From the sequence record PV660448: 64,000 bases of DNA. One strand, given 5' to 3'. Positions 1 to 18,635 of the stretch are shown piece by piece; position 1 is the stretch's first letter; each line of letters begins with the position of its first letter. This DNA comes from Escherichia phage LF82-4. A model generated the notes under the pieces. It did not search any database and was not told the origin of the DNA. It worked only from the letters and a program-made list of their open reading frames with translations. The translations under genes and the position numbers were made by a program.

Positions 1-89
1 ATACCGTCCATAACAAAAGGCCATTGAGCAAAGTTACTTAATGCACATGACGGCCACTTGAAATTACTTCTTATTTCTAATTCAGACAT
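1..89 (-). CDS. hypothetical protein, N-terminal fragment (gene continues beyond window start)
   Basis: ATG at 87-89 overlapping stop of ORF 82-300; frame open to window edge. Confidence 0.3.
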   Translation of the reverse strand, partial: MSELEIRSNFKWPSCALSNFAQWPFVMDG

Positions 90-300
90 CTTTAACACTT
101 ATAATTTCAACATCAGCCCAATGACCATATCCGGGTATACGGTCTTCGATAGATAAATTTCCGTCATTTTTAGGCATTTTAATTGACGTAACGTATGGTT
201 CTAAACGGTTTTCTGCATAATACGGAAAAACGTCTGTTACACGATAAGTAACTTCAATCATTTCCGTACCAAACAATTTCTGGATTAATTTATTCAACAT
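82..300 (-). CDS. hypothetical small early protein (72 aa)
   Basis: ORF track; part of tightly packed minus-strand array with coupled stop/start overlaps. Confidence 0.4.
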   Translation of the reverse strand: MLNKLIQKLFGTEMIEVTYRVTDVFPYYAENRLEPYVTSIKMPKNDGNLSIEDRIPGYGHWADVEIISVKDV

Positions 301-487
301 GTTTCAACCCTTTAATAGGAGATAACTCTTTACCCATACGTATGTCAGAAGTCCAATCAACCCATTGAACAGCATACGCTTCATTGATAATTCCAGCGGC
401 GGTTTTAAATTCAGGGAGAACTTTAAAAATCACCCCAGGAATTCCAACACCTTTTAATTGGACTGTTTGTGCTATTAAAAATTTCAT
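290..487 (-). CDS. hypothetical small early protein (65 aa)
   Basis: ORF track; early promoter immediately upstream at 512-542. Confidence 0.45.
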   Translation of the reverse strand: MKFLIAQTVQLKGVGIPGVIFKVLPEFKTAAGIINEAYAVQWVDWTSDIRMGKELSPIKGLKHVE

Positions 488-511
488 ATTTTTCCACTTA
501 CTAAAGAAATC

Positions 512-542
512 ATTATACTCTAATCCGTCCTTGGATGTAAAC
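512..542 (-). promoter_or_regulatory. T4-type early promoter (GTTTAC -35, TATAAT -10)
   Basis: minus-strand GTTTACATCCAAGGACGGATTAGAGTATAAT upstream of ORF 290-487. Confidence 0.55.
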
Positions 543-1156
543 TACTTAATGAAATTAATTTCTACCGGATGAACAACAGGTTGAGCAGTGATATATTGAG
601 TAATTGCTTTCATGACTAGAGCTTCAGAGCCAGGATTTTTCTCAACGAATTCACGTGCTTGGTTATGAGCTTCAAGTTCACTTAGTAAACCACTTCGTTG
701 ACATCCACGGTCTTGAGTACCCTGTTCAGATAAAAAGGCGACGATGTATTTTTCATCGTCATAAGGTTTAGGCAGTTGAGCAAACGTTCCTTTACTTCCG
801 AAAGGAGAGTTATGACGCCACATATCGCCGTGAGGAGTTTCAACCTTCGTATATTCGTGCGGGCCATTTTTCTTAATTTCTTGATGTGGAACTTCATGGA
901 CCTTAGGGTTAGGACATTCAATAAAATGCTCGTCTAAATCGGTCGAGAATATTAAAGTAAAACAATTACTGAATTTACCAACACCTGCCTGATAAATTTT
1001 ACCTTCAGAAGTTCTAATTTCACAAACTGAGCCGGCATCAGTAACTTCTAAAACTTCAAAAGGCTCGATAAGGTCATATGAGAACATGTTTTTAAGGCGT
1101 GGAGTAATATCCCCATTTTTAAAATTCATTTTATAAAAAGTATTAACTTTAAACAT
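542..1156 (-). CDS. hypothetical protein (204 aa), His-rich
   Basis: ORF track; no domain recognised by eye. Confidence 0.5.
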   Translation of the reverse strand: MFKVNTFYKMNFKNGDITPRLKNMFSYDLIEPFEVLEVTDAGSVCEIRTSEGKIYQAGVGKFSNCFTLIFSTDLDEHFIECPNPKVHEVPHQEIKKNGPHEYTKVETPHGDMWRHNSPFGSKGTFAQLPKPYDDEKYIVAFLSEQGTQDRGCQRSGLLSELEAHNQAREFVEKNPGSEALVMKAITQYITAQPVVHPVEINFIK

Positions 1157-1191
1157 AATTTCCTCAGTGGGAGCCGAAGCTCCCAGTTAAA

Positions 1192-1620
1192 TTAGATATC
1201 GAATTCATTAAGAACTACATCAAAGATTGCTTCCAGGTGTTCAGGTTTAGCTCGGTTGCTCAGGATGTGACGAATCCAAGTTTTAACCAGAAGCTTACGA
1301 TTAACACCGTTCCAGCAAGGATGAGTACCTAAATCACGCTGACGGAAATCGTCATCTAATGCAATTTTGAAGTTGGAACCTTCCATCGTGATTGAAACCG
1401 TGATGCCATTTTCAAATCGCATATAAACGTAATTAGGAGTCATGCACTGTTCGATTTCACATACTGAACCATTTTTATGTTTCCATAAGCAAATAACTTC
1501 AGAAGAACCAGCGATACCGTTAGAAACATATTTACGTTCGAAGTTGATGTAGTTCATTTTATTCTCCAGATGTTTAAGTTGTTTGTTGGTACAGGTATAT
1601 AATAACATAACCTGTACCAA
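1192..1620 (-). CDS. hypothetical protein (start may be internal Met near 1557)
   Basis: ORF track; N-terminal 21 codons may be untranslated leader. Confidence 0.45.
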   Translation of the reverse strand: MVQVMLLYTCTNKQLKHLENKMNYINFERKYVSNGIAGSSEVICLWKHKNGSVCEIEQCMTPNYVYMRFENGITVSITMEGSNFKIALDDDFRQRDLGTHPCWNGVNRKLLVKTWIRHILSNRAKPEHLEAIFDVVLNEFDI

Positions 1621-1631
1621 AGTAAACTGTT

Positions 1632-2000
1632 TTATGCAACTTTAATCCAATTGTCTAAATTTAAAACACCTTTGGCTTTCATTTTTTCGATCAGGTTATC
1701 TGCTGTAATGCGTCCATTTTGATACCATGTAACATCTTCAGAGTAACCAGTTTCTTCGTCAACATATGTTTCTGAACGAATTTTACCTGTAATAATAGTT
1801 TTTAATTCGTATGTGTCACCTGTGAAAAAGTTTGCTAACACAATTTTCCAAGAGAAATCATCAGAAGGACCTTCAGGGGTCATACAACCTACGAACTCAA
1901 ATTGCTCTTTGTATAACATCCACTGGAATTCTTTAATTTCGATAGCTTTATAACCGTCGTGGTCTTTACATTTGATGTATGAGTTCAGATTGATTTTCAT
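1632..2000 (-). CDS. hypothetical protein (122 aa)
   Basis: ORF track; ATG at 1998-2000; promoter upstream. Confidence 0.5.
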   Translation of the reverse strand: MKINLNSYIKCKDHDGYKAIEIKEFQWMLYKEQFEFVGCMTPEGPSDDFSWKIVLANFFTGDTYELKTIITGKIRSETYVDEETGYSEDVTWYQNGRITADNLIEKMKAKGVLNLDNWIKVA

Positions 2001-2042
2001 TTTGTTCTCCGGTTTGTTTTATTGATTAGGTGGTACAAGTCT

Positions 2043-2071
2043 ATAGTAACACATCCTACAGGAGAGTAAAC
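2043..2071 (-). promoter_or_regulatory. T4-type early promoter
   Basis: minus-strand GTTTAC-N17-TACTAT between terminator hairpin and ORF 1632-2000. Confidence 0.5.
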
Positions 2072-2100
2072 ACTTTTTTTAAACTTTTTCTGCCCTAAAC

Positions 2101-2126
2101 GCACAAAAGGGAGACCGAAGTCTCCC
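2101..2126 (-). terminator. rho-independent terminator hairpin (GGGAGAC-CGAA-GTCTCCC plus T-run)
   Basis: perfect 7-bp stem with tetraloop followed by TTTTGTGC on minus strand, just after stop of small basic ORF. Confidence 0.6.
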
Positions 2127-2131
2127 TAAAA

Positions 2132-2311
2132 TTATGCAACAACCTTTCCAAAACGAGAAGCATCATCTCGAAGAACTGCACGTGCTCTGCGCATGATCTT
2201 CTCAACTGTTTGATTAATACGAGAGTTCGACCCACGCTTGTATCCAGCGCGTTTAGAGGTACCATCAACTTTCTTTTCAACTGCTTTCTTTGCTTTAGCT
2301 TGTTTTGCCAT
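2132..2311 (-). CDS. small lysine/arginine-rich basic protein (59 aa), below ORF-track size cut-off
   Basis: manual translation MAKQAKAKKAVEKKVDGTSKRAGYKRG...; ATG at 2309-2311, TAA at 2132-2134, terminator immediately downstream. Confidence 0.4.
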   Translation of the reverse strand: MAKQAKAKKAVEKKVDGTSKRAGYKRGSNSRINQTVEKIMRRARAVLRDDASRFGKVVA

Positions 2312-2474
2312 TATAAATTCTCTTTAAATGAAAATGCAGGACTTATTGACATTGCCTGCGCAAGCCCTCAAGGGGAACATAGGTTTTGGATATTTAACGA
2401 CAGGATAACCATAAACCCGTCATCATACCTACCATGACTTACACAGCTAACCTTTTGCTGACGCATGATAGCAA

Positions 2475-2723
2475 TTATTTCAAAGTAATAACAAAATGAC
2501 GAACTGCTTTACGAGCTGCAGAAGCCAGAGGCTTAGCATATTTCAGTTCATCTTTTGCTTCCAGTTCAGCAGCCAGAGTAGCCTGAGCAGGATTCAGATG
2601 TTTGAAATATCGCAGGATTTCCAGTGCTTCGGCTTCAACATCAATTGAAGCGCCGTAGTTTTCGTGACCGTTATTCCATGCGTTGCGTTGCAGTTCAAGA
2701 GCGTGTTGTAATTGTTTAATCAT
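2475..2723 (-). CDS. rIII: rIII lysis-inhibition accessory protein
   Basis: 82 aa, same length and position as T4 rIII (downstream of gene 31). Confidence 0.7.
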   Translation of the reverse strand: MIKQLQHALELQRNAWNNGHENYGASIDVEAEALEILRYFKHLNPAQATLAAELEAKDELKYAKPLASAARKAVRHFVITLK

Positions 2724-2847
2724 TTTAAATTCTCAATTCGAGATAATATTTAGTAGCCACGTTCGTCTGAATTTCACCTTCTTTCGACAAGTCTCTCAGT
2801 TGTAGGCTACCGCTTAGAAGAGTGTTCTCTTCATATAGTTATTTATA

Positions 2848-3180
2848 TCACTTATAAAGACACGGAATAGCTTTATAGTGGCATGTTACGAATTTCTGTT
2901 TAATTTCTTTAGGTTGTTTAAGTCCCAAAGCCACAAATGGATGTGGAACATTTCGAATTTGTCCAACTGGTAGTGGAGTCAAATCACCGACTTCAACAAA
3001 ACCTTCAGGAACATCAGGACCTACAGAATGAACTACGCATAGTTCAGGAACTTCACCTTGAACACGTTTACCAATCACAAGTCCTGATTCGGTAACTTCT
3101 TCATCACCTGCTTGAGCGGGTTCAGAAACCAGAATGACATATTCACCAACAGCACGAATTGGGAGTTGTACTTCAGACAT
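2848..3180 (-). CDS. 31: gp31 co-chaperonin (GroES analogue for capsid protein folding)
   Basis: 110 aa; recalled strong similarity to T4 gp31; position between cd and rIII. Confidence 0.85.
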
Positions 3181-3210
3181 CTTATTTCCTTGTTGTTTGA
3201 CGATAGATTA

Positions 3211-3235
3211 ATAATACCATACTATTCGTAAAGCA
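3211..3235 (-). promoter_or_regulatory. middle-type promoter (MotA box TGCTTTA about 12 bp upstream of TATTAT)
   Basis: minus-strand ATGCTTTACGAATAGTATGGTATTAT upstream of gene 31. Confidence 0.5.
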
Positions 3236-3237
3236 TA

Positions 3238-3546
3238 TTACATAAGAAGCAAACGTTCTACCGGAGTACCATCAACCGAAATTACTTTATCAAGGCGGAA
3301 AGAACGCCACTGACCTAACTTGGTATCGAATGCTCGAACTGATTCACGAGGTTCATAACGAACTTCTGTTGCTGGATTGTTATTGACATATTTGACTTCA
3401 AGTTCATCGCGCGAAGCAAACATAGTGCGTACATCACCGTTAGCCTTTTCAAATACAACACAATGAACGCCTACAGACAGAATAGTTTTAATACGTTCAC
3501 GAAGAACCATAGTTTCTTGTTCAGTTAAAATCATATTATTCACCAC
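3238..3546 (-). CDS. hypothetical protein (102 aa), position of T4 31.1/31.2
   Basis: ORF track; synteny. Confidence 0.5.
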   Translation of the reverse strand: MVNNMILTEQETMVLRERIKTILSVGVHCVVFEKANGDVRTMFASRDELEVKYVNNNPATEVRYEPRESVRAFDTKLGQWRSFRLDKVISVDGTPVERLLLM

Positions 3547-4117
3547 AAAAGTTTCGGATTTGTTCCCAATTCAGAGAACGAAGATTATTACGAGAGTACT
3601 GAATTACTTCAATACCAGCTTGTTTTAGAATATCTGCCCAATTTTCAGGAGATCGGTCGTATAATTCTGCGTATACAACCTTTTTAATACCTGACTGCGT
3701 AATAGCTTTAGTGCAATCAGGACACGGAGAAAGCGTAGTATATAACGTAGCACCTTCAATAGAATTACCTTTACGAGCGGCAAACAAAATTGCATTCAAT
3801 TCTGCATGGATTTCATTATTAGCAGACCATGCACTATGAGCAGCTCGATGTTCTTTGGCTAAAACAAAATTATCTACCCGTCCAAATGCTGTAGTGCCTT
3901 CTTTATGTCCAGCAACGATGACTGGGATTGGTTTATTCTTCAACCAACCATTTTCAGATGCATGTTCGCAACAGTTAACGCCACCTGCAGGTGAACCGTT
4001 ATATCCAGTAGAGATAATGCGTCCATCTTTTTCAATGACGGCACCAACTTTCCATGAACAACATTTTGATTCTTGAGAAATCAGATATGCAATCTGAAGG
4101 TATGTGCTAGCTTTCAT
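3536..4117 (-). CDS. cd: dCMP deaminase
   Basis: 193 aa; cytidine/dCMP deaminase zinc motifs (HAE...PC..C); recalled similarity to T4 Cd. Confidence 0.85.
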   Translation of the reverse strand: MKASTYLQIAYLISQESKCCSWKVGAVIEKDGRIISTGYNGSPAGGVNCCEHASENGWLKNKPIPVIVAGHKEGTTAFGRVDNFVLAKEHRAAHSAWSANNEIHAELNAILFAARKGNSIEGATLYTTLSPCPDCTKAITQSGIKKVVYAELYDRSPENWADILKQAGIEVIQYSRNNLRSLNWEQIRNFCGE

Positions 4118-5109
4118 TATTGAACCTTATTAATATAAGTTAACAGCTCTTTAGTTTGTTCCCAACTGATGCACGCATCGGTAACGGAAACGCCATAGGA
4201 CATATTATCAGAAATTTTTTGATTTCCTTCATGTAGGAACGATTCTATCATAATTCCTTTGACCAAATCATTAGCTGCTAAATTTTTACCAATACCAATT
4301 TGATTGCTATAATGCCCATCAGCGTTTGCATGGCTACAGTCAACCATTACATAATGATTCAGACCTACTGCCCTTGCTTTGTTAGAAGCTTCTTGAATAT
4401 CAGAAGAATGATAGTTCGGGCCGTTGGTCCCGCCACGCAATACGATATGCGTATTCTGATTACCTTCAGCTTCAACAATGCCTACAGTACCATCGACGTC
4501 CATACCCATATACCGATGAGGCCAGGCGGCACTATACATCGCGTCTGTAGCTACTTTAATAGAACCATTGGTTGCGTTCTTGAAGCCTACGCACATCGGT
4601 AGACCTGAAGCAATTTCACGATGTGTCTGACTTTCAGTCGTACGGGCGCCAATAGCAACCCATGAGAAAATACCAGAAAGATACTTAATCGTGAATGGGT
4701 CTAATACTTCAGTTGCTAATGGAAGTCCCATACGTAGAAGTTTACGACACAATGTTCGTGCAACTATAAGACCGTGGTTCATATCAAAACTTCCGTCAAG
4801 ATATGGATCATTTACAAGACCTTTCCAACCTACGGTAGTTCGAGGCTTTTCAAAATAAACGCGCATCACTAACAGAACATTAGGAAGACGAGTTTGAAGT
4901 TCAGCCAGACGTTTGCCGTATTCAACCGCGGCAATAGGGTCATGAATTGAACAAGGACCTACAACAATAAGTTTGCGTGGGTCTTCACCGTTCATAATCG
5001 AATTAACTTGTTCGCGATGAGAAGCCACTTGTGATGCGTAAGCTTCCGACAAAGGAATAATCTCAGCCAGTTCTTTTGGAGAAATAAGTTTTCCGACGAC
5101 AGGTAACAT
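4117..5109 (-). CDS. 3-deoxy-D-arabino-heptulosonate-7-phosphate (DAHP) synthase, class I (AroG/AroF/AroH-like)
   Basis: 330 aa with hallmark motifs LIVVGPCSIHD, RVYFEKPRTTVGWKGL, GARTTESQTHRE, GFKN, DCSHAN, ESFLHEGNQ, VTDACI; stop/start overlap with cd. Confidence 0.8.
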   Translation of the reverse strand: MLPVVGKLISPKELAEIIPLSEAYASQVASHREQVNSIMNGEDPRKLIVVGPCSIHDPIAAVEYGKRLAELQTRLPNVLLVMRVYFEKPRTTVGWKGLVNDPYLDGSFDMNHGLIVARTLCRKLLRMGLPLATEVLDPFTIKYLSGIFSWVAIGARTTESQTHREIASGLPMCVGFKNATNGSIKVATDAMYSAAWPHRYMGMDVDGTVGIVEAEGNQNTHIVLRGGTNGPNYHSSDIQEASNKARAVGLNHYVMVDCSHANADGHYSNQIGIGKNLAANDLVKGIMIESFLHEGNQKISDNMSYGVSVTDACISWEQTKELLTYINKVQ

Positions 5110-5229
5110 AACAATCCTTAGGAGATATAAACAGATTCTGATTCAACAATACCTTTAACCGGATTAGACAGGCTAAGTTGGTAGTGCTCAGATTTATGAC
5201 CATTCTCGATAGTAATGAGATAGCTCTCA

Positions 5230-5466
5230 TTATAGTGTTCCATATACTCGAGTTGCTTCAACAAGACCATCACTGCCTAATTTAAGATTAGTAATTTGGT
5301 CACCATCTTTAGGATTAACGATTATGAGAAAAGAACGTGGAGATTCTTGAATAACTCGTAATGTTGCATCCTGGAAACGTTCAGACACTTTATTGATGAG
5401 TGCTTGAGCAAATTCTTTTACTTTAATCTGAAATTCGTGTACTGTAATTGGATTTTCACTTAGCAT
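5230..5466 (-). CDS. hypothetical protein (about 78 aa; start at internal Met after promoter)
   Basis: ORF track ORF 5230-5571 trimmed to first ATG downstream of promoter 5495-5524 with RBS GAGGAAA. Confidence 0.4.
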   Translation of the reverse strand: MLSENPITVHEFQIKVKEFAQALINKVSERFQDATLRVIQESPRSFLIIVNPKDGDQITNLKLGSDGLVEATRVYGTL

Positions 5467-5494
5467 TTCAATTTCCTCATTTGTTGGTAGAGTT

Positions 5495-5524
5495 ATAGTA
5501 TCACAACTCCACCATGTTGTAAAC
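5495..5524 (-). promoter_or_regulatory. T4-type early promoter
   Basis: minus-strand GTTTAC-N18-TACTAT. Confidence 0.5.
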
Positions 5525-5800
5525 TTAAATTGCAAAACATTTAATTTCTTGTGAATCGAAATCAACTTCACACTGAATTACTAGTTCAGCATCAAGACCA
5601 AACACAACAATCACATGAGCCGAGCTGGGCAACAATGTAACAGACACAGAATCCACTTGGTCAGGCACCAGAGTATTCAAAACGTAGAGTAGTTCAGAGT
5701 GGACCTTAAGCTCGGTAGCAGTATCCAGCTTATCAAAGAAATGATTTGCGATAATCTGACTAAAAACGACCTTTACAATTTCAGAATATTTAGGGAACAT
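5525..5800 (-). CDS. hypothetical protein (91 aa)
   Basis: ORF track. Confidence 0.4.
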   Translation of the reverse strand: MFPKYSEIVKVVFSQIIANHFFDKLDTATELKVHSELLYVLNTLVPDQVDSVSVTLLPSSAHVIVVFGLDAELVIQCEVDFDSQEIKCFAI

Positions 5801-5807
5801 AATTACC

Positions 5808-6032
5808 TCAGTGTACAGTATTTACTTTAACTCGAACAACAAATTGCTCGGTCGGTTCGCCTACAGGAACAAACTCTACATGATATTCGCCTTTGTAACG
5901 AGTATTCAGGTCGTTACGAATTTCGGTAAGCTTGTTGATTAATGTAGAACTCATATTAAGTCCTACTAGTTTACGAAGCATTTTGTATGCTTCATCTTCG
6001 ATTTCATGATGTTTATCGTACATAATTTTCAT
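5808..6032 (-). CDS. hypothetical protein (74 aa)
   Basis: ORF track. Confidence 0.4.
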   Translation of the reverse strand: MKIMYDKHHEIEDEAYKMLRKLVGLNMSSTLINKLTEIRNDLNTRYKGEYHVEFVPVGEPTEQFVVRVKVNTVH

Positions 6033-6203
6033 TTAACCATTCAATTGCCTGGTCGACGTTATCAAATATACCACCGTCCAAACGTTCTTCATGCTCATAG
6101 TCCAGCACATCAATACCGAACTGTCCATTTACTAAAGGCCAGGCTACAAACAAATATTCTTTATGCTGTTCGATGGCCTCAATCACTTCATATAATCGTT
6201 TCA

Positions 6204-6204
<1 letters not shown>
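6013..6204 (-). CDS. hypothetical protein (63 aa)
   Basis: ORF track; ATGA overlap with pseT stop. Confidence 0.4.
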
Positions 6205-7290
<1,086 letters not shown>

Positions 7291-7291
<1 letters not shown>

Positions 7292-7590
7292 TATTTTATT
7301 CCTAAGAAAGTTTCAAGAATACGAATGTTATGCTCGCGCCGGTCTTTATTAATTTCAGCAACGTTTTTATTAATTGACGTACTTCTAACGTTTGAAGAAA
7401 TAAATTTAATCATATGACTTTTGAGTTGTTGCAAATCCAACCCTTTTTCTTTAGCAGCTTTACGAAGAGCTTTACCTGCTTCATCTAGTGCCTTTGCTGC
7501 ATCTTTGTCATAATTGCCAAGTGACATTCCACGACAGATATCAATATACTCATCAGACCGTTTGATGTAATTCTCTAGTAATGTTTTCAT
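7291..7590 (-). CDS. hypothetical protein (99 aa)
   Basis: ORF track; promoter upstream. Confidence 0.45.
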
Positions 7591-7618
7591 TTAGATTTCC
7601 TCAATTATCCATAGGAGC

Positions 7619-7648
7619 ATTATAATCTGCTCCTGAGAGTTTGTAAAC
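7619..7648 (-). promoter_or_regulatory. T4-type early promoter embedded in inverted repeat AGGAGCA/TGCTCCT
   Basis: minus-strand GTTTAC-N18-TTATAAT. Confidence 0.5.
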
Positions 7649-7872
7649 TATTTTACTAAAGATTCAATATACTCGTGAAGAGCTTTAGTCGCTACTGCCC
7701 ACTTATTCTGATATTCATTTTTCAGATTAGCACGAGACTGAACTAACAATCGGTCATTAGTCGGAGGCAAAGATTCTAATCGTTGAATCTGGCGCCCATA
7801 AATCATAGCCGCCATTTCAGATTCATAGATAAGCCCTTTAATGTGTTCATGCTGTTCTTTAGTCATTGGCAT
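7648..7872 (-). CDS. hypothetical protein (74 aa)
   Basis: ORF track. Confidence 0.45.
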   Translation of the reverse strand: MPMTKEQHEHIKGLIYESEMAAMIYGRQIQRLESLPPTNDRLLVQSRANLKNEYQNKWAVATKALHEYIESLVK

Positions 7873-8153
7873 TTTTCCTCTTTTAAACCACTACGATAAT
7901 AACATAACATAGTCTTCTGGTCATGTACATATCTTTTTACGTCGTTTAACCAGATACGAAATTCTTGAGAGTCTTCAAATGGCATTCCAACCCATGGATT
8001 ACCATCAATAACCTTTACTTGCCATTTCTGGTTATATTCAACAATAGATTCAGGCCATTGTGGATGTAAAGTTTCTTTAGGGCTTAAGGGCACATCCTGG
8101 GCACATCCAGCCAAAATGCCAATAGATAATACAACTGCGGATAATTTAATCAT
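7863..8153 (-). CDS. predicted lipoprotein (96 aa)
   Basis: N-terminal signal with lipobox LAGC. Confidence 0.5.
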   Translation of the reverse strand: MIKLSAVVLSIGILAGCAQDVPLSPKETLHPQWPESIVEYNQKWQVKVIDGNPWVGMPFEDSQEFRIWLNDVKRYVHDQKTMLCYYRSGLKEEKCQ

Positions 8154-8506
8154 TCTGAGAGCTTCCTGAGGTCTTCTGCAAAGGAATCGAAGGACCTGTT
8201 GATTTGTTTTTCGACCAATCCTGGCTTACTTGCCACCACGTTCTTCTTCTTCGAATCCTTACGGAGCTTTTCATTTTCAGCCTTAAGTTGGTCAACTAAA
8301 ACACGGTTCTTATAAGTCATTTCTTCGATTGACTGATATTGAACTTTGAAGTCGTCTAATACTTTAGCATTGTTTTTAGCAGCCTCTTTAACAGAGGCCA
8401 ATTCAGTATTCAACGAATCAACTTTGTTGTTTAAGACAACTATTGTTACCGTAGAAACTAGAGCAAAAGCTGCTACTATAGCGTAAATCGGATTTACTTT
8501 AAGCAT
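8150..8506 (-). CDS. hypothetical membrane-anchored coiled-coil protein (118 aa)
   Basis: N-terminal hydrophobic helix then charged K/E-rich region. Confidence 0.45.
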   Translation of the reverse strand: MLKVNPIYAIVAAFALVSTVTIVVLNNKVDSLNTELASVKEAAKNNAKVLDDFKVQYQSIEEMTYKNRVLVDQLKAENEKLRKDSKKKNVVASKPGLVEKQINRSFDSFAEDLRKLSE

Positions 8507-8994
8507 GTTTTAATAATCTCAATGATTTCATCTCGGGATAATCCATTGATAAGAACGGTTTTCAAACCATCACACTGGATTTTGTACGATTCAAACAATA
8601 CACACAACTCTTCTGCTGTATGATATGGACTTGAGATTCCGAGGCGGTTGAATTTGTCGGTAAGAGGGTCGCAAATAATGTAGAATTTTATGCCTGCGAT
8701 ATGTACGTTTGGTTGACTAATATTAATGAACACATTAGCGTCATATTTAGTCAAATTGTTTTGAAGAAATTCTACCATAGCATTAACTGCTTCCGGCATC
8801 GCTTCACGTTTCTCTTCGGTGTAACGTGTTGAATATTCCTTTTGCTTTAACTTCTTTTTAGCATTTTTCGCTAGAGTAGTACGAAGGTCCGTAAGATAAC
8901 CAACTGCACGGCCTTTCTTAAAGACCCGGATTCCATCTGTAGAATCACCAAATGCTGCCACAACCATATCGTTAGTAATCAATTGCATATTCAT
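8494..8994 (-). CDS. alc: Alc (blocks host transcription on cytosine DNA), start at internal ATG 8992-8994
   Basis: about 166 aa from ATG preceded by RBS GAGGAG and early promoter; position between pseT cluster and rnlA as in T4. Confidence 0.6.
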   Translation of the reverse strand: MNMQLITNDMVVAAFGDSTDGIRVFKKGRAVGYLTDLRTTLAKNAKKKLKQKEYSTRYTEEKREAMPEAVNAMVEFLQNNLTKYDANVFINISQPNVHIAGIKFYIICDPLTDKFNRLGISSPYHTAEELCVLFESYKIQCDGLKTVLINGLSRDEIIEIIKTCLK

Positions 8995-9024
8995 AATTTT
9001 CTCCTCGTGTTGTTGATAAAAACC

Positions 9025-9054
9025 ATAGTAACACCATCCTTGGTGTTTGTAAAC
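9025..9054 (-). promoter_or_regulatory. T4-type early promoter
   Basis: minus-strand GTTTAC-N18-TACTAT upstream of alc. Confidence 0.5.
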
Positions 9055-9056
9055 CA

Positions 9057-10190
<1,134 letters not shown>

Positions 10191-10207
10191 TCAGTTAGTT
10201 TTTTTAA

Positions 10208-10237
10208 ATTGTACCACAATCCTTGTGGTATGTAAAC
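10208..10237 (-). promoter_or_regulatory. T4-type early promoter with 8-bp inverted repeat in spacer
   Basis: minus-strand GTTTAC-N18-TACAAT upstream of rnlA. Confidence 0.5.
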
Positions 10238-10647
10238 TACTTTTTCTTATGTTGGATATTCCAAGGCGGGTTGAACTTTTTGATAAAAAGTGGTTCTTCA
10301 AGGTCCATTGTTGCAATGGTCATTGAACCAAGTTCGTTAGTGACTGAAAGGTCAAAACATTGGCGGGCCCAGAATTCAACCTTTTTGCCTTGCATTAAGG
10401 CATCCAAAATCATAAGTGATTTTCTTGAATCTGAAGTCTGGTCTTTTCGATTTATGGCTGTTCGATAATAGTTAATGCGTTTCTTTAAATTCTTGGTTTT
10501 ACCAATATACACAAGTTCGTCATCTATAGCAATAGCGTATATGACATTTTTCTTATTAGGGGCATCAATGGTTTTAATTGTTGCATCTTCTAATAGCTCC
10601 AATTCTATATATTTAATAAAGGAATATTCGGCGGCAATATCTTTCAT
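10237..10647 (-). CDS. denA: endonuclease II (GIY-YIG family)
   Basis: 136 aa; motif VIYAIAIDDELVYIGKTKNLKKRINYYR; recalled near-identity to T4 DenA. Confidence 0.85.
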   Translation of the reverse strand: MKDIAAEYSFIKYIELELLEDATIKTIDAPNKKNVIYAIAIDDELVYIGKTKNLKKRINYYRTAINRKDQTSDSRKSLMILDALMQGKKVEFWARQCFDLSVTNELGSMTIATMDLEEPLFIKKFNPPWNIQHKKK

Positions 10648-10649
10648 AA

Positions 10650-10669
10650 TAAAGTGGGACCGAAGTCCC
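10650..10669 (-). terminator. stem-loop GGGAC-CGAA-GTCCC (terminator or RBS-sequestering hairpin)
   Basis: between nrdB stop and denA start. Confidence 0.45.
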
Positions 10670-10673
10670 GTCC

Positions 10674-11852
10674 TTAGAAATATTTTTTGTATGAATTGAT
10701 TACATTTTGGTCTACATCATTATCAATTTGTGCAACAAGATAAGAACTGATTTCAACTTCCTGAGGAGCTGCTTGAACTAAATCAGAGTTCAGATATTCA
10801 CGAATCCAAGGATACGGATGCTTGGTCGGAGCGTCAGTGATTGGGCATGGCAAACCGCACTGTTTCATACGAGACACAGACAAGTAATCAACAAAAGCAC
10901 ACATACTCTGCGTATTGATACCTGGACATGTACCATCTTTAAAAAGGTGTGCAGCCCATTCCTTCTCTTGACTATTTACTTCCATAAAAATGTCAACTGC
11001 TTCTTGTTCACATTCTTTAGCAATTTGAACCCACTCATCACCGTCAGTACCAGATTGAAGTTGACGGATAATGTACTGAGTACCCTTGAGATGGAGTTGT
11101 TCGTCACGAGCAATGAACTTCATAATCTTTGCATTGCCTTCCATAATTTCCATATTTTTATGGAAGTTGAAAGTACATGCAAATGATACGTAAAAACGAA
11201 TAGCTTCTAAGGCGTTGATAACATGCAAACAGAGATAAAGAGACTTCATTAGGTCATGTTTACATTCTTCCATGTGCATAAGACTATTTGAATATGCATC
11301 TAAATCATATTCATTTTCGGAAAAACATTTAAAAATTTCTTTAGCATTTTCCCATTCACGTGTTTTAACTAGAACATCATCATAATATTTGCCGATTGAT
11401 TCCGCACGTTTCATAATTGCTTCATCTAATACAATCTCATCAAATACCTTCGATGGATCAGTATAAAGATTTCGCATGATATGAGTATATGAACGAGAGT
11501 GAATGGTTTCACTGAATGTCCATGTAGCAACCCATGTATCTAATGAAGGGTCAGAAATCAGTGCCATAAGTACCGCAGATGGGGCCCTGCCTTGGATAGA
11601 ATCTAATAACGATTGATACTTAAGATTGTTTGTAAAGATATCCTGTTGAAACTGAGGAAGCTTATTGAACTGCGCAGAGTCCAACATCAAGTTTACCTCT
11701 TCCGGGCGCCAAAAAAACGACAATTGCTTTTCAATAAGCTCTTCAAAAACTTTATGGCGTTGAATATCGTAACGCGCAAGGCCAAGACCGGAACCAAAGA
11801 ACATTGGTTCATTCAAAACATCAACTTTTTGGGTATTAAAAACTGTACTCAT
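10674..11852 (-). CDS. nrdB: ribonucleotide reductase small subunit (uninterrupted)
   Basis: 392 aa; di-iron ligand pattern; no intron. Confidence 0.9.
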   Translation of the reverse strand: MSTVFNTQKVDVLNEPMFFGSGLGLARYDIQRHKVFEELIEKQLSFFWRPEEVNLMLDSAQFNKLPQFQQDIFTNNLKYQSLLDSIQGRAPSAVLMALISDPSLDTWVATWTFSETIHSRSYTHIMRNLYTDPSKVFDEIVLDEAIMKRAESIGKYYDDVLVKTREWENAKEIFKCFSENEYDLDAYSNSLMHMEECKHDLMKSLYLCLHVINALEAIRFYVSFACTFNFHKNMEIMEGNAKIMKFIARDEQLHLKGTQYIIRQLQSGTDGDEWVQIAKECEQEAVDIFMEVNSQEKEWAAHLFKDGTCPGINTQSMCAFVDYLSVSRMKQCGLPCPITDAPTKHPYPWIREYLNSDLVQAAPQEVEISSYLVAQIDNDVDQNVINSYKKYF

Positions 11853-11902
11853 TATATTCTCTCAATAGTGACTCATCCATGAGTCAATTATAAACAAAAT
11901 TC

Positions 11903-14158
11903 TTAAAGCTTACAAGCGGAGCAATCTTCAGCTTTAGGCGTTTCTAACTCATAGTCATCTGTACCAGAACCATCTCGAGTGTTATGATAGTAAAGGTTCT
12001 TACCACCAAAGTACCAGAAGTAAAGCAAGTCATCAAGCATTACAGACATTGGCACTTTGCCTTTCTCAAAGACTGAAGGGTCGTAGTATGTATTAGCAGA
12101 AGCAGATTGGCACACCCATTTTAACATGATAACAACTTGTGTCAGATAAGGCTTATTACCTTTCTTAGAGAGTTTCCACGCATAGTCATAAAGACCCATG
12201 TTGTGTTCAATATTAGGAACTACTTGACGGAAATTACCTTCTTTAGATTCTTTAATACTTACTGGGCCACGAGGTGGTTCAATACCATTTGTGCTATTTG
12301 AGACCTGGCTGCTTGATTCGCATGGCATGAGAGCACTGAGTGTACTGTTACGAATCCCGTGTTCTTTAAGTTCGGCTCGTAGTTCTTCCCAATCACATAC
12401 ATAGTTTGGGGCTGCGATTTGGTCAATCTTTTTATTGTACCAGTCGATAGGTAATTCGCCTCGAGACCATTTAGTGTCTGAATAATACTCGCAAGGTCCT
12501 TTTTCTTTGGCGAGTTTGATTGAAGCTTTGATAAGGCCATATTGCAATCTCTCAAACAATTCATGAGTCAAATCGTTAGCGTCTTCATATGAAGCAAAGT
12601 TAGAAGCTAACCATGCAGCATAGTTCGTCACACCAACACCGAGATTTCGACGCTTTTTGGCTTTTAAAGCTTCTGGAACCGGATAGTCTTGATAGTCTAA
12701 CAGGTTATCAAGTGCACGTACTTGTACTTCAGCAAGTTCATTAATTTTATCTTGGTCTTGCCAATCAAATTTATCTAATACAAAAGCAGATAACGTGCAT
12801 AAACCAATTTCAGCATCAGGGCCATTCACATCATTAGTTGGAATAGCGATTTCACAACATAAGTTACTCTGACGAATTGGAGCTTTTTCACGAATAAATG
12901 GAGTGTAGTTATTCGTGTTATCAACAAACTGTGGATAAATTCGAGCAGTACCAGAACGTTCAGTCATGAACAATTCAAAGAGTTCTAGTGCTTTGATTCT
13001 TTTCTTTCTGATTGTTGGGTCTTTTTCAGCTTTCTCATAAAGCTCACGGAATTTATCTTGATCTTCAAAGAACGAGTAATATAGTTCGCCTGACATTTCG
13101 TGAGGGCTAAATAAAGTAATATAATCATTTTTGCCAAGGCGTTCCATCATGAGGTCATTAATCTGAATTCCATAGTCCATATGTCGAATACGGTTTTCAT
13201 CCACGCCTTTGTTATTTTTCAGAACTAATAGGTTCTCTACTTCTAAGTGCCACATCGGATAATACGCTGTAGCAGCACCACCACGAATACCACCTTGAGA
13301 ACAAGATTTTACTGCAGTTTGGAAATGTTTCCAGAATGGAATAACACCTGTATGTCGAACTTCACCCATACCAATCTTAGAACCTTCTGCACGAAGCATA
13401 CCAACGTTGATACCGATACCAGCTCGTTTAGAAATATATTCAATAATTGATGCTGAAGTTTTGTTAATAGATTTTAACGAATCACCGGCTTCAATAACTA
13501 CACAACTAGAGAACTGGCGAGTTGGAGTACGAGCACCTGCCATAATTGGGGTTGGCAATGAAACTTGATGAGTAGAAACGGCATCATAAAAACGAATAAT
13601 ATGTTTCAAACGGTCATGAGTTTCGTCTTGATGTAAGGCCATGCCAATAGCCATGATAGCAAACTGCGGAGTTTCATAAATCTTACCGGTTGTTTTATCT
13701 TTAACCAGGTATTTTTCTTTAAGCTGCATAGCACCAGCATAAGTCAAGTCAAAGTCTCGTTCATGTTTAATCTGTGAATCGAGATAAATGATTTCTTCTG
13801 CTGAATATTGAGACAACAGCTCAGGGTCGTATTTGCCTTCATTAACACAATAAGAAATATGGTCGATAAAAGCAGGCGGTTCAAACTGCCCATATACATC
13901 TTTACGAAGTGCAAACATTAATCCTTTAGCGGCAACATATTGATAGTCAGGTTCTTCGACAGAAATCAAGTTAGCTGCAACTTTAATACAAATCTTCTGG
14001 ATATCTTTGGTGCTCATCCCATCAACCAGATGAGTCTTAATTTCTTCATACAATTCGTATGGGTCGATTTGTGTTCCTTCACATTGCCAAGTTAAGACTT
14101 GAATAATTTTCTGTGCATCAAAATTTTGGGATACCCCACTGCTCTTAATTACTTGCAT
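11903..14158 (-). CDS. nrdA: ribonucleotide reductase large subunit
   Basis: 751 aa; recalled high similarity to T4 NrdA. Confidence 0.9.
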   Translation of the reverse strand: MQVIKSSGVSQNFDAQKIIQVLTWQCEGTQIDPYELYEEIKTHLVDGMSTKDIQKICIKVAANLISVEEPDYQYVAAKGLMFALRKDVYGQFEPPAFIDHISYCVNEGKYDPELLSQYSAEEIIYLDSQIKHERDFDLTYAGAMQLKEKYLVKDKTTGKIYETPQFAIMAIGMALHQDETHDRLKHIIRFYDAVSTHQVSLPTPIMAGARTPTRQFSSCVVIEAGDSLKSINKTSASIIEYISKRAGIGINVGMLRAEGSKIGMGEVRHTGVIPFWKHFQTAVKSCSQGGIRGGAATAYYPMWHLEVENLLVLKNNKGVDENRIRHMDYGIQINDLMMERLGKNDYITLFSPHEMSGELYYSFFEDQDKFRELYEKAEKDPTIRKKRIKALELFELFMTERSGTARIYPQFVDNTNNYTPFIREKAPIRQSNLCCEIAIPTNDVNGPDAEIGLCTLSAFVLDKFDWQDQDKINELAEVQVRALDNLLDYQDYPVPEALKAKKRRNLGVGVTNYAAWLASNFASYEDANDLTHELFERLQYGLIKASIKLAKEKGPCEYYSDTKWSRGELPIDWYNKKIDQIAAPNYVCDWEELRAELKEHGIRNSTLSALMPCESSSQVSNSTNGIEPPRGPVSIKESKEGNFRQVVPNIEHNMGLYDYAWKLSKKGNKPYLTQVVIMLKWVCQSASANTYYDPSVFEKGKVPMSVMLDDLLYFWYFGGKNLYYHNTRDGSGTDDYELETPKAEDCSACKL

Positions 14159-14245
14159 ATATTCCTCAGTATAGGTTGATAGACATTACTCCAAACGGGA
14201 TAGTATTTATCCCGTTAATTTATTATACACTTTTAAACTGAAGCG

Positions 14246-14500
14246 TTAATTATCCTCAGCAATAATTTCTTCATATTCTTTAGGAGTTAAGACTGTAATA
14301 TCGAAATAAACCAGAGGCTCTTTTTCCATACCGAATCCACCACAGAATTCACGATATTCATAAATTCGTTCATGTGAATGGCAAATGAATCGTTCACCTT
14401 TAACTGTGATTTCACTATTCGGTGAAGGGATATCCAGTTCACTTGGATTTTTCATTTCAAAAATTGTGGTGCCATATGAATTAATAAAACGTAAAATCAT
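14246..14500 (-). CDS. hypothetical protein (84 aa), translationally coupled to td
   Basis: ATG one nt after td stop (TAAAATG); trimmed from ORF 14246-14563. Confidence 0.45.
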   Translation of the reverse strand: MILRFINSYGTTIFEMKNPSELDIPSPNSEITVKGERFICHSHERIYEYREFCGGFGMEKEPLVYFDITVLTPKEYEEIIAEDN

Positions 14501-14501
14501 T

Positions 14502-14813
14502 TTATACCGCCATTTTAGCTTTGATAGCTGGATGTGATTCGTAATTTTTAAGAATGAAATCACTCGGATTCATATGCTCTGTTACCCAATGAAGCTGTAA
14601 TGTCGTGCTCCAATCAGAGAATCCTTCAGGCCAATCAATTTTAAGTTCACACAGTTCTTTAGGCTCACGACGAAGAACTTCTTTGCATTGTTCTACATGA
14701 TTGCTGTAGATATGCGTGTTGCCGCCTGAGAACACTAAATCACCTGGGATAAGGTTACACATCTTCGCTACAATATGCGTCAAGGCAGCGTACGAGGCAA
14801 TGTTGAATGGTAG
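14502..14813 (-). CDS. td: thymidylate synthase, exon 2
   Basis: encodes LPFNIASYAALTHIVAKMCNLIPGDL... C-terminal TS segment; joins exon 1 at 15831. Confidence 0.85.
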   Translation of the reverse strand, partial: LPFNIASYAALTHIVAKMCNLIPGDLVFSGGNTHIYSNHVEQCKEVLRREPKELCELKIDWPEGFSDWSTTLQLHWVTEHMNPSDFILKNYESHPAIKAKMAV

Positions 14814-15830
14814 CATTATGTTCAGATAAGGTCGTTAATCTTATCCCGGAATTATATCCAGCTGCATGTCACCATGCAGAGCAGACTATATCTCCAACTT
14901 GTTAAAGCAAGTTGTCTATCGTTTCGAGTCACTTGACCCTACTCCCTAAAGGGATAGTCGTTAGGCATTTATGTAGAACCAATTCCACTTATCAGATTTT
15001 ACACGGTAAGTAACTAATCCTGATGAAATTTCAAAATGTCTAGCCGCATCGGCTGCACATTCAAAAATAATCCCGTCGCATGAAATCTTTTTGATGTTAG
15101 CTGGCTTTTTGCCTTTCATCTTTTCAGATAGTTTAGTTTTAGTTTTTTCTGAATGTTTGTGATTAAAGAACGGGTTATTTTCAGCTGAACGTTTTCGACA
15201 CTTTCCACAAGTGTTGGCTGAAGTTGGTATACGAACACCACATTTACAAAACTTGTGGTTTTCCGGATTCCATCTACCATTTTTACTTCCGTGTTTACCA
15301 TAAATAGCTTTTCGACCATCAGATCCAAGCTTAAGCATCTTAGCTTTAACAGTTTCAGCTCGTTTCTTAGCAATTTCTTCCTTTAATGGATGATTCGAAA
15401 ATGTATCACCAAAGGACGCATCGGCGATATTATATCCATTAATTTTAGAATTTAGCTCGTTAATCCAAAAATTTTCTCGTTCAATAATCAAATCTTTCTC
15501 ATATGGAATTTCTTCCAATATAGAGCATTCAAAAACATTACCGTGTTTATTAAAAGATCTTTGAAATTTTATAGAAGAGTGAACACCATTTTCAAGGTCT
15601 TTAAAATGTCTCTTCCATCTTTTCTCAAAATCTTTAGCACTTCCAACATACACTTTACCATTTAAAGTGTTTTTAATCTGATAAATTCCACTTTTCATAA
15701 ACACCTCTTTAAAATATAGAAGTATTTATTAAAGGGTGGTCCTACAATTTAGCACGGGATTGTCTACTAGAGAGGTTCCCCGTTTAGATAGATTACAAGT
15801 ATAAGTCACCTTATACCCAGGCCTAAATTA
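14814..15830 (-). mobile_element. group I self-splicing intron in td (about 1017 nt) carrying I-TevI ORF
   Basis: 5-prime end TAATTTAGGCCTGGGTATAAGGTGACTTATACTTGTAATCTATCTAAACGGGGAACC matches recalled T4 td intron; exon 1 ends in U, intron ends in G; splicing restores TS frame. Confidence 0.85.
14961..15698 (-). CDS. I-TevI: GIY-YIG homing endonuclease I-TevI (intron-encoded)
   Basis: 245 aa from MKSGIYQIKNTLNGKVYVGSAKDFEKRWKRH...; recalled near-identity to T4 I-TevI. Confidence 0.9.
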   Translation of the reverse strand: MKSGIYQIKNTLNGKVYVGSAKDFEKRWKRHFKDLENGVHSSIKFQRSFNKHGNVFECSILEEIPYEKDLIIERENFWINELNSKINGYNIADASFGDTFSNHPLKEEIAKKRAETVKAKMLKLGSDGRKAIYGKHGSKNGRWNPENHKFCKCGVRIPTSANTCGKCRKRSAENNPFFNHKHSEKTKTKLSEKMKGKKPANIKKISCDGIIFECAADAARHFEISSGLVTYRVKSDKWNWFYINA

Positions 15831-17201
<1,371 letters not shown>

Positions 17202-17203
17202 TT

Positions 17204-17395
17204 TTATTTCCTCAGATATTTTTTGACCATATAGTATTGGAATTCAAACATTCTTGAATCAATAACAAAAATTTGTTTTCTTGGGCATTCATTTAATCGT
17301 ACAGCTGAACACCCAAACGCAAGTTCATGATATTGTTTCTTTTCTATTTCTGAAAGGAAAGTTCTAAGATAACGGAAAAATAGACAGTTAATCAT
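17204..17395 (-). CDS. hypothetical protein (63 aa)
   Basis: ORF track. Confidence 0.4.
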   Translation of the reverse strand: MINCLFFRYLRTFLSEIEKKQYHELAFGCSAVRLNECPRKQIFVIDSRMFEFQYYMVKKYLRK

Positions 17396-17397
17396 AA

Positions 17398-17646
17398 TTA
17401 TTTCCTCAGATTTTTCTTAACAACTTTCCAATCGGCTTTAAACGATTCAACATCAGAATGGTGAATCCAGAATCCTGCGCTTTCACCATCTTCGTAGAGT
17501 GGACATCCATCACATTCTTCATTCCAACCCATTTCACGTAAAGATGTTTCAGCTTGTTCAAGGAGTTCAGCATCTTTATCAAGGATGTTGAAGTACCATT
17601 TGCCTTTAACTTCAGAGTCGTTAATGCTTTGGCGTTGTAATTTCAT
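17398..17646 (-). CDS. hypothetical protein (82 aa)
   Basis: ORF track. Confidence 0.45.
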   Translation of the reverse strand: MKLQRQSINDSEVKGKWYFNILDKDAELLEQAETSLREMGWNEECDGCPLYEDGESAGFWIHHSDVESFKADWKVVKKNLRK

Positions 17647-17711
17647 TTTATTCTCCGTTGCTTCATTTGTTTTGACAGGGTAATAGTATCACACCATTAC
17701 CCTGTTGTATA

Positions 17712-18074
17712 CTATTTTATTCCAAAAATTTCTTTAATTTCTGCAATCACATCTCGAGCATTTTCTGTAGTCACTTCAAAGATGAGTGATTGTTTAGAAA
17801 TAGACTCTGGAGATACCTCGATGAAGTGTTTAAACTCATCATCATAAAGCTCAAAATATGAACCTGGCTTACCATCAAAACCGAATTCAGTACCGTCTCG
17901 CATAGTTACACGGGTTACACATTTATCATCATCATAATCTGTGTTCATGTCTTTTACAACAAAACTAGGACCATGAAGCTCAATCAAAGCCAGCATATCG
18001 GCGTTTTGTGGGCATTCATTGGCGAAGATAGCTTTACATTCTGGATTGATGATATAAGTTTTTCCAATTTTCAT
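17712..18074 (-). CDS. hypothetical protein, paralog A (120 aa)
   Basis: clear sequence similarity to ORF 18136-18522 (M.IGK.YIINP..K..FANEC...LIE.HGPSFVV...RVTM.DGTE). Confidence 0.55.
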   Translation of the reverse strand: MKIGKTYIINPECKAIFANECPQNADMLALIELHGPSFVVKDMNTDYDDDKCVTRVTMRDGTEFGFDGKPGSYFELYDDEFKHFIEVSPESISKQSLIFEVTTENARDVIAEIKEIFGIK

Positions 18075-18106
18075 TTTGATTTCCTCTCATTTGTTTTGAT
18101 AGGACT

Positions 18107-18522: not shown

Positions 18523-18551
18523 TTTGATTTCCTCATGTTGTTGATAGGTTT

Positions 18552-18629: not shown

Positions 18630-18635
18630 AATTTA

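Follow-up and report, generated by a model that had tools for sequence, protein, structure and literature searches.

DAHP synthase (DAHPS) genes are already known from Straboviridae phages, such as Escherichia phage HX01 (YP_010247097.1), JS09, Shigella phage Shf125875 and phiC120. The gene described here lies in a stretch of 64,000 nucleotides of Escherichia phage LF82-4 (PV660448), which is called the window throughout. It was like the known genes in position and orientation at cd.2/cd, showed no difference of substance from them, and is thus one more copy. Matches were found in 212 records of the phage collection (a few of the weakest being bacterial DNA), each spanning at least 80% of the protein, and 139 GenBank phage records contained a protein that was 98–100% identical. 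The names in use in GenBank are aroF, AroG, DAHP synthase and phospho-2-dehydro-3-deoxyheptonate aldolase, together with some entries as "hypothetical protein" or "putative aldolase". In PHROGs, the family is phrog_5045, under the category "moron, auxiliary metabolic gene and host takeover". An earlier sequence-only reading of this DNA had left open whether related phages carry an annotated homologue; since they do, the presence of the gene is not a discovery. The full-text literature search found database annotations only, and no paper discussing or testing a phage DAHP synthase. The gene is therefore a known and widely annotated accessory gene among RB69-like and other enterobacterial T4-like phages, and the new point is its rebuilt-looking inhibitor pocket.

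The Tyr-sensitive AroF of E. coli (6AGM) shares with the phage enzyme the type I-alpha (beta/alpha)8 barrel, the metal, PEP and E4P residues, the Gly at the Tyr/Phe specificity position, and the hairpin. Compared with AroF, AroG and AroH, the phage enzyme has lost the N-terminal segment that includes AroF N8 and AroG D6/D7, and carries other residues around the feedback site. Furthermore, the phage clade is altered at several positions of the engineered feedback-resistant alleles AroG-fbr (P150L, S180F, D146N, F209A and others) and AroF-fbr (N8K, P148L, Q152I), namely AroG P150, Q151, S180 and F209, and AroF N8 and Q152. The phage substitutions differ from these alleles in being natural, multiple and fixed, with other replacement residues, while D146 and AroF P148 are unchanged and resistance in the phage is a prediction. 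In addition, the PhzC-type (type II-B) DAH7PS of phenazine clusters is likewise an additional DAHP synthase with a dedicated role, in which structural elements of the allosteric site have disappeared, and the same logic is proposed for the phage enzyme. However, PhzC belongs to an unrelated type II subclass (<10% identity to type I), is bacterial, and serves secondary metabolism, and its insensitivity was shown experimentally, whereas that of the phage enzyme is deduced.

Family assignment and catalytic site

The DAHPS gene (4117..5109, minus strand; ATG at 5109-5107, TAA stop at 4119-4117) encodes a protein of 330 aa. The six motifs named in the sequence-only reading were all located in it, at residues 51 (GPCSIHD), 88 (KPRTTVGWKG), 154 (GARTTESQ), 257 (DCSHAN), 293 (HEGNQ) and 310 (TDACI). 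PF00793, which that reading had expected, was matched with an E of 5e-75 and 252 bits (cut-off 25.5). Moreover, the protein scored 427.7 bits against TIGR00034, the aroFGH equivalog (cut-off 173.2), and 455 bits against NF009395 (cut-off 343). The PF00793 and TIGR00034 scores place the DAHPS family signal far beyond chance. The AroG model NF006723 (363 bits, cut-off 568) and the AroH model NF009396 (386 bits, cut-off 463) were not passed, and therefore the "AroG" label in some GenBank phage records is loose. The best PDB match was E. coli AroF 6AGM (E=5e-105), and the identities to E. coli AroF, AroG and AroH were 51%, 47% and 44%, respectively.

The metal ligands are C53, H260, E289 and D311 (phage numbering), and the PEP/E4P residues are R83, K88, P89, R90, T91, G154, A155, R156, K177 and R225. 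The latter correspond to R92, K97-P-R-T100, G163-A-R165, K186 and R234 of AroG, all conserved in the phage protein. Four metal ligands and 11 PEP/E4P residues were aligned and invariant in 30 sequences, 19 from the phage clade and 11 from bacteria. The AlphaFold model (pLDDT 93.8) superposed on 4HSO, 1KFL and 1QR7 with a TM of 0.96 and an rmsd of 1.3 Å, and it kept the N-terminal helices and the regulatory beta-hairpin (strands 198-203 and 209-214; beta6a/6b). The AroF/AroG/AroH-type (type I-alpha) identity proposed in the sequence-only reading, here AroF-like, is thus supported by the profile scores, the 6AGM match, the catalytic residues and the predicted model. Judged by its residues, the protein would be a catalytically competent, metal-dependent enzyme, which converts PEP and erythrose-4-phosphate to DAHP and Pi.

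The same reading had called the protein full-length. This was correct for the catalytic (beta/alpha)8 barrel, which is complete, but not for the whole chain, which is short of E. coli AroF, AroG and AroH by about 9–11 residues at the N-terminus, about 7 residues in an internal loop, and about 5–9 residues at the C-terminus. A mis-called start was ruled out as the cause of the short N-terminus. No in-frame start lies further upstream of ATG 5109 in the ORF list for the window, because this list gives for each ORF the first start that follows the previous stop, and independent phage gene calls were all equally short.

The inhibitor pocket in the phage clade

The Tyr-binding pocket, in AroF numbering, consists of P148, Q152, S181 and G212, with N8 and I11 contributed by the partner subunit. 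The inhibitor pocket sits in the tight-dimer interface (PMC4735112), and the side chains of S180/S181 touch the main chain of the inhibitor (PMC9529685). AroG P150L, S180F and F209A/S are feedback-resistant, and Gln151 of AroG has been implicated in Phe inhibition (PMC9529685). Similarly, AroF Q152I is feedback-resistant, as is AroF N8K according to its citation in a review (PMC11843938).

The sequence-only reading had proposed a check of the feedback-inhibitor residues, and the pocket was found to be remodelled and its cap absent. Only 8–12 residues precede the conserved Pro11 in proteins of the phage clade, compared with 16–53 in the bacterial ones, and the counterparts of AroG D6/D7 and AroF N7/N8, which form the N-terminal inhibitor cap, are absent from the whole clade. 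Furthermore, only seven columns in the entire protein had one fixed residue in the phage clade and another fixed residue in bacteria, and all seven were at or adjoining the inhibitor site. They are (phage residue first, AroG residue second) I141=P150, K142=Q151, G146=D155, I147=L156, P171=S180, Y200=F209 and A214=T223. Four of the seven, those at AroG P150, Q151, S180 and F209, are classical feedback-resistance positions. In terms of AroF, I141 stands in place of P151 (aligned with AroG P150), K142 in place of Q152 and P171 in place of S181. The phage residues differ from those of characterised resistant mutants, with Ile and not Leu at P150, Pro and not Phe at S180, and Lys and not Ile at AroF Q152. 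Because the cap has been lost and fixed substitutions occupy feedback-resistance positions, the enzyme is probably insensitive to Tyr, Phe and Trp.

Part of the pocket is preserved, namely D137 (AroG D146), P138 (AroF P148), L170, V212 and G202 (AroF G212), the last being Gly in AroF and Ser in AroG and AroH. These residues bear on a different explanation, in which the protein is an ordinary AroF-type isoenzyme, still regulated by Tyr and supplying more of the normal enzyme, with pocket differences due to neutral drift in the lineage. Among solved and curated proteins, the closest relatives are indeed of AroF type, the model retains the hairpin and the N-terminal helices, and enterobacterial AroF falls in the neighbor-joining (NJ) sister group. 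However, the Ser that contacts the inhibitor (AroF S181) was Pro in 19 of 19 phage sequences, AroF Q152 was Lys or Arg in 19 of 19, and the capping N8 is missing. Feedback resistance in both AroG and AroF arises from changes at identical positions, and the clustering of all seven diagnostic columns at one site is not what neutral drift predicts. This explanation is considered unlikely. As G202 and P138 of the Tyr-sensitive AroF pocket are kept while Q152 and S181 are replaced and N7/N8 are absent, the protein is AroF-like by descent and should not be classed with the Tyr-sensitive AroF enzymes.

Within the phage clade, the pocket varied less than random sets of positions did (entropy 0.36 vs 1.03, P=0.0005). 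Such strong conservation would not be expected for a site that had simply been abandoned, with the caveat that the site lies in the tight-dimer interface. The allosteric pocket may instead have been re-specified for another effector, such as chorismate, prephenate or a phage-specific nucleotide, comparable to hm-dCTP for cd. Near-invariance across genera that are only 55–60% identical overall in this protein points to constraint on a new set of residues; Lys at the AroG Q151 position and Tyr at F209 could give new contacts; and there is tight linkage to cd, an enzyme that is subject, according to the T4 record, to allosteric activation by hm-dCTP and dCTP. However, structural constraint at the dimer interface alone could account for the conservation (PMC4735112), the site stands open without its N-terminal cap, and the present data point to no candidate ligand. 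Re-specification is rated a little below the Tyr-regulated isoenzyme and is doubtful as well.

Altered specificity (for another aldose phosphate, or for a KDO8P-synthase-like or novel sugar-acid product used to modify DNA or virions) or a role without catalysis is very improbable: PF00793 takes in both DAHP and KDO8P synthases and unusual sugar modification of DNA is a known trait of Mosigviruses, but KPRTT and every E4P, PEP and metal residue are identical to those of AroF/AroG/AroH, the DAHPS-specific TIGR00034 was passed by a wide margin, and the gene is absent from RB69 and present in four other genera, so that it does not correlate with Mosigvirus-specific DNA chemistry. On the same distribution, a link to the arabinosyl-hmC DNA chemistry of Mosigvirus was ruled out.

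Locus, expression and origin

The gene lies between cd (3536..4117, minus) and pseT (6204..7103, minus), as the sequence-only reading had placed it, in the interval where T4 has cd.1-cd.5. Its absence from T4 was confirmed, and it is also absent from RB69. In T4, the slot between cd.2 and cd is occupied by cd.1, and in RB69 it is empty. The backbone of the phage is RB69-like (genus Mosigvirus) and not T4 proper. The gene for dCMP deaminase, cd (193 aa), is directly downstream of the DAHPS gene, and hence the polarity given earlier, with the DAHPS start overlapping the cd stop, has to be reversed: the last base of the DAHPS stop TAA (4119-4117) is also the first base of the cd start ATG (4117-4115), giving TAATG. 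This overlap suggests co-transcription of the two genes and possibly translational coupling.

A Shine-Dalgarno sequence, AAGGA (5115..5119, minus), is found 5 nt upstream of ATG 5109 and overlaps the TAA (5120-5118) of an upstream 51-aa ORF (5118..5273, minus). Residues 15-50 of this ORF matched the C-terminal half of the cd.2 family (DUF7320), and were closer to cd.2 of Kanagawavirus/Marfavirus than to the adjoining RB69-type cd.2, which is intact (5230..5466, minus; likely start ATG 5466, preceded by GAGGA). The 51-aa ORF was probably left behind by recombination when the DAHPS cassette was imported. In the gap between cd.3 and cd.2, an early-promoter-like site (5495..5523, minus; GTTTACA-17 nt-TACTAT, with TG before the -10) is homologous to a T4 sequence annotated as early promoter Pe133295. 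No terminator-like site was found on the minus strand between this site and cd, and the promoter scan as a whole gave no enrichment over shuffled sequence. The site is likely to be the promoter of a cd.2-DAHPS-cd transcript.

In five genera of Straboviridae, the gene was located between cd.2 and cd, adjoining cd upstream or separated from it by one small inserted gene. The dN/dS against homologues from four other genera was 0.14–0.20, showing that the gene is under purifying selection. With this value, the conserved synteny, the PHROG category and flanks of bona fide phage genes (cd, gene 31, rIII and pseT), the earlier label of candidate auxiliary metabolic gene is reasonable.

The phage proteins formed one clade with an NJ bootstrap of 30/30 and a long stem. 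The GC of the DAHPS gene was 41.6% and its GC3 30.5%, similar to those of the adjoining phage genes. Recent capture from the E. coli host was ruled out by the 51% identity to AroF, the phage-like GC3 and the long stem of the 30/30 clade. No specific donor could be named, as the best cellular matches reached a plateau at 50–55% identity (Gammaproteobacteria, Planctomycetota and Kiritimatiellota-like MAGs). For the pocket motif DPFTIKY(L/F), the back-translated search matched 11 IMG/VR contigs, nine of them inside DAHPS homologues. None of its 19 matches across 185,579 species genomes fell within a DAHPS gene, and hence no cellular source of the phage-type pocket was found. By a rough estimate, 19 matches in these genomes is about the level of chance.

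Proposed role in infection

The preferred reading is that the phage clade possesses a catalytic, early-expressed and probably feedback-insensitive DAHPS, which raises the flux through the shikimate pathway during infection, and it is given a probability of about 0.6. Transcription would probably be early, from the conserved T4-type early promoter upstream of cd.2, and on one message with dCMP deaminase. In the near-identical phage LF82-1, the annotation shows no further shikimate-pathway gene across the parts that correspond to 1..10200 and 9996..58996 of the window (about 59 of 64 kb), and thus the product must feed the host AroB-AroC enzymes. The likely role is extra capacity at the committed step during infection. 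If the enzyme is not inhibited by Tyr, Phe or Trp, the entry of carbon into aromatic amino acids and chorismate would be uncoupled from end-product control by the host, and this uncoupling would coincide with the production of phage proteins. A benefit of extra DAHP synthase to the phage within a lytic cycle of 25–30 minutes is hypothetical.

With regard to the family, we lean slightly towards the view that the Straboviridae DAHPS is a natural, phage-specific type I-alpha class with a rebuilt feedback site (the cap deleted, and Ile-Lys, Pro, Tyr and Ala in place of Pro-Gln, Ser, Phe and Thr), which either is constitutively active or responds to a new effector of relevance to the phage. The literature searched yielded neither a proposal nor a test of a constitutive or re-effectored phage DAHPS. 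The question lends itself to a direct test, given that deletions are easily made in phage genes and that E. coli aro mutants are available.

The importance of the finding is modest and depends on the deregulation that the pocket suggests. If true, metabolic engineers would gain from the phage enzyme an I-alpha DAHP synthase scaffold whose feedback resistance evolved naturally. The well-studied auxiliary metabolic genes are mostly those of marine cyanophages. If the enzyme is indeed deregulated, it would be a clear case of viral takeover of the committed, feedback-controlled step in making aromatic amino acids, and this in a coliphage that is tractable.

Gene position and enzyme identity

The DAHP synthase gene (DAHPS) was located at 4117..5109 on the minus strand, encoding 330 aa, with the ATG at 5109 and the TAA at 4119-4117 (ORF listing and sequence). 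A Shine-Dalgarno AAGGA was read 5 nt 5' of the ATG on the same strand, and the six motifs quoted in the sequence-only reading were all present (residues 51, 88, 154, 257, 293 and 310). The dCMP deaminase gene cd (3536..4117, minus strand; PF00383) followed directly 3' on the same strand. The two genes had one base in common (TAATG), so the overlap claimed previously was real, with the polarity reversed: it is the stop codon of DAHPS that runs into the start codon of cd, not the DAHPS start into the cd stop.

The expected Pfam profile, PF00793, was recovered with an E-value of 5e-75. Furthermore, the protein scored 427.7 bits with the NCBIfam aroFGH equivalog TIGR00034 (cut-off 173) and 455 bits with the subfamily NF009395 (cut-off 343), and fell under both cut-offs of the AroG-specific and AroH-specific models. 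The closest solved structure was E. coli AroF (6AGM, E=5e-105), and the identities with E. coli AroF, AroG and AroH were 51, 47 and 44%, respectively. The AlphaFold2 model (pLDDT 93.8, pTM 0.92) superposed on crystal structures of DAH7PS from Neisseria and E. coli with a TM of 0.96 and an rmsd of 1.3-1.4 Å. In the alignment, every AroG catalytic residue was retained: the metal ligands C61, H268, E302 and D326 correspond to phage C53, H260, E289 and D311, and the PEP/E4P residues R92, K97-T100, G163-R165, K186 and R234 to R83, K88-T91, G154-R156, K177 and R225. These residues did not vary among 19 phage-clade (Straboviridae) and 11 bacterial sequences. The profiles, the similarity to AroF, the model and the catalytic residues together support the AroF/G/H-type reading and make the assignment as secure as sequence analysis permits; taken alone, the catalytic identity as a DAHP synthase is very likely.

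Distribution, genomic setting and origin

The sequence-only reading, whose observation was confirmed and whose interpretation was supported overall, had left undecided whether related phages carry an annotated homologue. The protein matched phrog_5045, 'phospho-2-dehydro-3-deoxyheptonate aldolase' (E=3e-182), in the PHROGs category 'moron, auxiliary metabolic gene and host takeover', and by tblastn DAHPS occurred in 212 of 50,697 phage records (100 at identities of at least 99% and 39 at 95-99%). DAHPS is thus an accessory gene annotated beforehand, and its presence is not new. Full-text literature searches on the enzyme and phage found no paper discussing or testing a phage DAHP synthase. Some matches in the phage collection were bacterial DNA, affecting a few of the weakest of the 212: CAKLQH020000043.1, named 'Acinetobacter phage MD-2021a', carries clpA, ynfA, aroF, bioH and fadH, and AGRM01000002.1 is a 691-kb record of Salmonella enterica subsp. 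houtenae. Below 55% identity, such records inflate the apparent number of DAHP synthases in phages.

In its gene order, the window follows the RB69-type phages of the genus Mosigvirus, such as HX01. The order is cd, cd.1, cd.2, cd.3, cd.4, cd.5, pseT in T4 and cd, cd.2, cd.3, ORF227c, cd.4, pseT in RB69, where DAHPS is absent from the cd-pseT interval; in the window, cd is followed by DAHPS, a 51-aa ORF, cd.2, cd.3, a 227c-like ORF, cd.4 and pseT. RB69 is without 31.2, its cd.2 directly adjoins cd, and its cd (7743-8252 of the RB69 record) is annotated with 510 nt, while cd of the window and of T4 both have 582 nt.

In Kanagawavirus (CIP9, PEi20) and Marfavirus (Kpn BM7), DAHPS was placed and oriented as in the window. 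In the Shigella phage vB_SdyM_006 (Bragavirus; junction region 3457-3795 / 4084-4635 of its record), one small ORF of 112 aa without a Pfam match lay between DAHPS and an unannotated cd, the downstream gene labelled 'hypothetical protein' being a dCMP deaminase (PF00383, E=6e-25). In the Providencia phage PSTRCR_121 (Gualtarvirus), an HNH homing endonuclease (3490-4056 of its record) lay there. The DAHPS-cd junction is an insertion site in its own right. Elsewhere, the near-identical LF82-1 record has a homing endonuclease annotated between nrdB and nrdA (43854-44495; by homology about 11850..12490 of the window, minus strand).

The 51-aa ORF (5118..5273, minus strand; hypothetical protein in GenBank), directly 5' of DAHPS, matched DUF7320, the family of cd.2, at positions 43-76 of the profile alone, which lie in its C-terminal half. 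Its identity was 46-47% with Kanagawavirus/Marfavirus cd.2 compared with 30% with the adjacent, overlapping, intact RB69-type cd.2. It probably represents the remaining 3' half of a cd.2 of foreign origin, marking the upstream crossover by which the DAHPS cassette was imported into a Mosigvirus backbone. The mechanical cd.2 ORF (5230..5571, minus strand; 113 aa, GTG start) overlapped the cd.3 stop, spanned a promoter-like site and matched DUF7320 from residue 36. The ATG at 5466, with a Shine-Dalgarno GAGGA, gives the 78-aa form annotated in related phages, which is almost certainly the real gene.

In the NJ tree, the 25 phage-clade proteins were monophyletic (30/30 bootstraps, stem 0.148), with a sister group including enterobacterial AroF and other Gammaproteobacteria. 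The best cellular matches levelled off at 50-55% identity, GC (41.6%) and GC3 (30.5%) were phage-like, and dN/dS against homologues of four other genera was 0.14-0.20. Together with the synteny, these results show that DAHPS is an old Straboviridae gene under selection that has come and gone within the variable cd-pseT interval. A recent acquisition from E. coli was rejected on the low identity with AroF (51%), the monophyly with its long stem and the phage-like GC3.

The feedback site and its alternatives

Both subunits contribute to the type I-alpha inhibitor site, which lies within the tight-dimer interface: one provides its N-terminal extension, the other a beta-hairpin region (PMC4735112). 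Every phage-clade protein had 8-12 residues ahead of the conserved Pro11, compared with 16-53 in bacterial sequences, and residues aligned with AroG D6/D7 and AroF N7/N8 were nonexistent. All columns of an alignment of 25 phage with 68 bacterial sequences were screened for those fixed in phages and differently fixed in bacteria. Only seven were obtained: I141 (AroG P150), K142 (Q151), G146 (D155), I147 (L156), P171 (S180), Y200 (F209) and A214 (T223), four of them published feedback-resistance positions. AroG P150L, S180F and F209A/S are feedback-resistant, Gln151 is implicated, and S180/S181 touch the inhibitor main chain (PMC9529685); AroF Q152I and N8K are likewise feedback-resistant (PMC11843938).

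The back-translated pocket motif DPFTIKY(L/F) gave 19 matches in 185,579 species-representative genomes, roughly the number estimated for chance, and none within a DAHPS gene. Of 11 contigs matched in IMG/VR, 9 carried the motif within a DAHPS homologue, the contigs being mostly 160-178 kb long. Within the phage clade, random sets of non-catalytic positions had a mean entropy of 1.03 and the rebuilt pocket one of 0.36 (P=0.0005). Such strong conservation does not agree with a feedback site left to decay.

The most likely reading is an active DAHP synthase that is made early and escapes inhibition by Tyr, Phe or Trp (probability about 0.6). An AroF-like enzyme with Tyr regulation retained would suit the nearness to AroF, and appears unlikely beside the short N-terminus and the replaced positions. 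Re-specification of the allosteric site, ranked after it and also improbable, would account for the pocket conservation by a new ligand, but a dimer-interface constraint fits equally, and the conservation is compatible with either. An altered substrate or a non-catalytic use is very improbable, the catalytic residues being intact.

Expression and proposed role

A promoter-like site (GTTTACA-17 nt-TACTAT with a TG extension; 5523..5495, minus strand) was found by consensus scan in the cd.3/cd.2 gap, the scan overall showing no enrichment over shuffles. It aligned with the sequence marked as early promoter Pe133295 in the T4 record, and no terminator-like site was seen in the scan between it and cd on the same strand. 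It is reasonable to suppose from the sequence that cd.2, DAHPS and cd are transcribed together early from this putative promoter.

No other shikimate genes were annotated in LF82-1, which covers ~59 kb of the window, so the phage enzyme could do no more than feed additional PEP and E4P to the shikimate enzymes of the host. The PhzC DAH7PS of phenazine clusters is unregulated (PMC6435475), a precedent for the logic proposed here. The new contribution of this analysis is a feedback site remodelled across the clade, a testable lead worth retaining. An early enzyme unresponsive to Tyr, Phe and Trp would send extra PEP and E4P into the host shikimate pathway, and might make more chorismate and aromatic amino acids available during phage protein synthesis.
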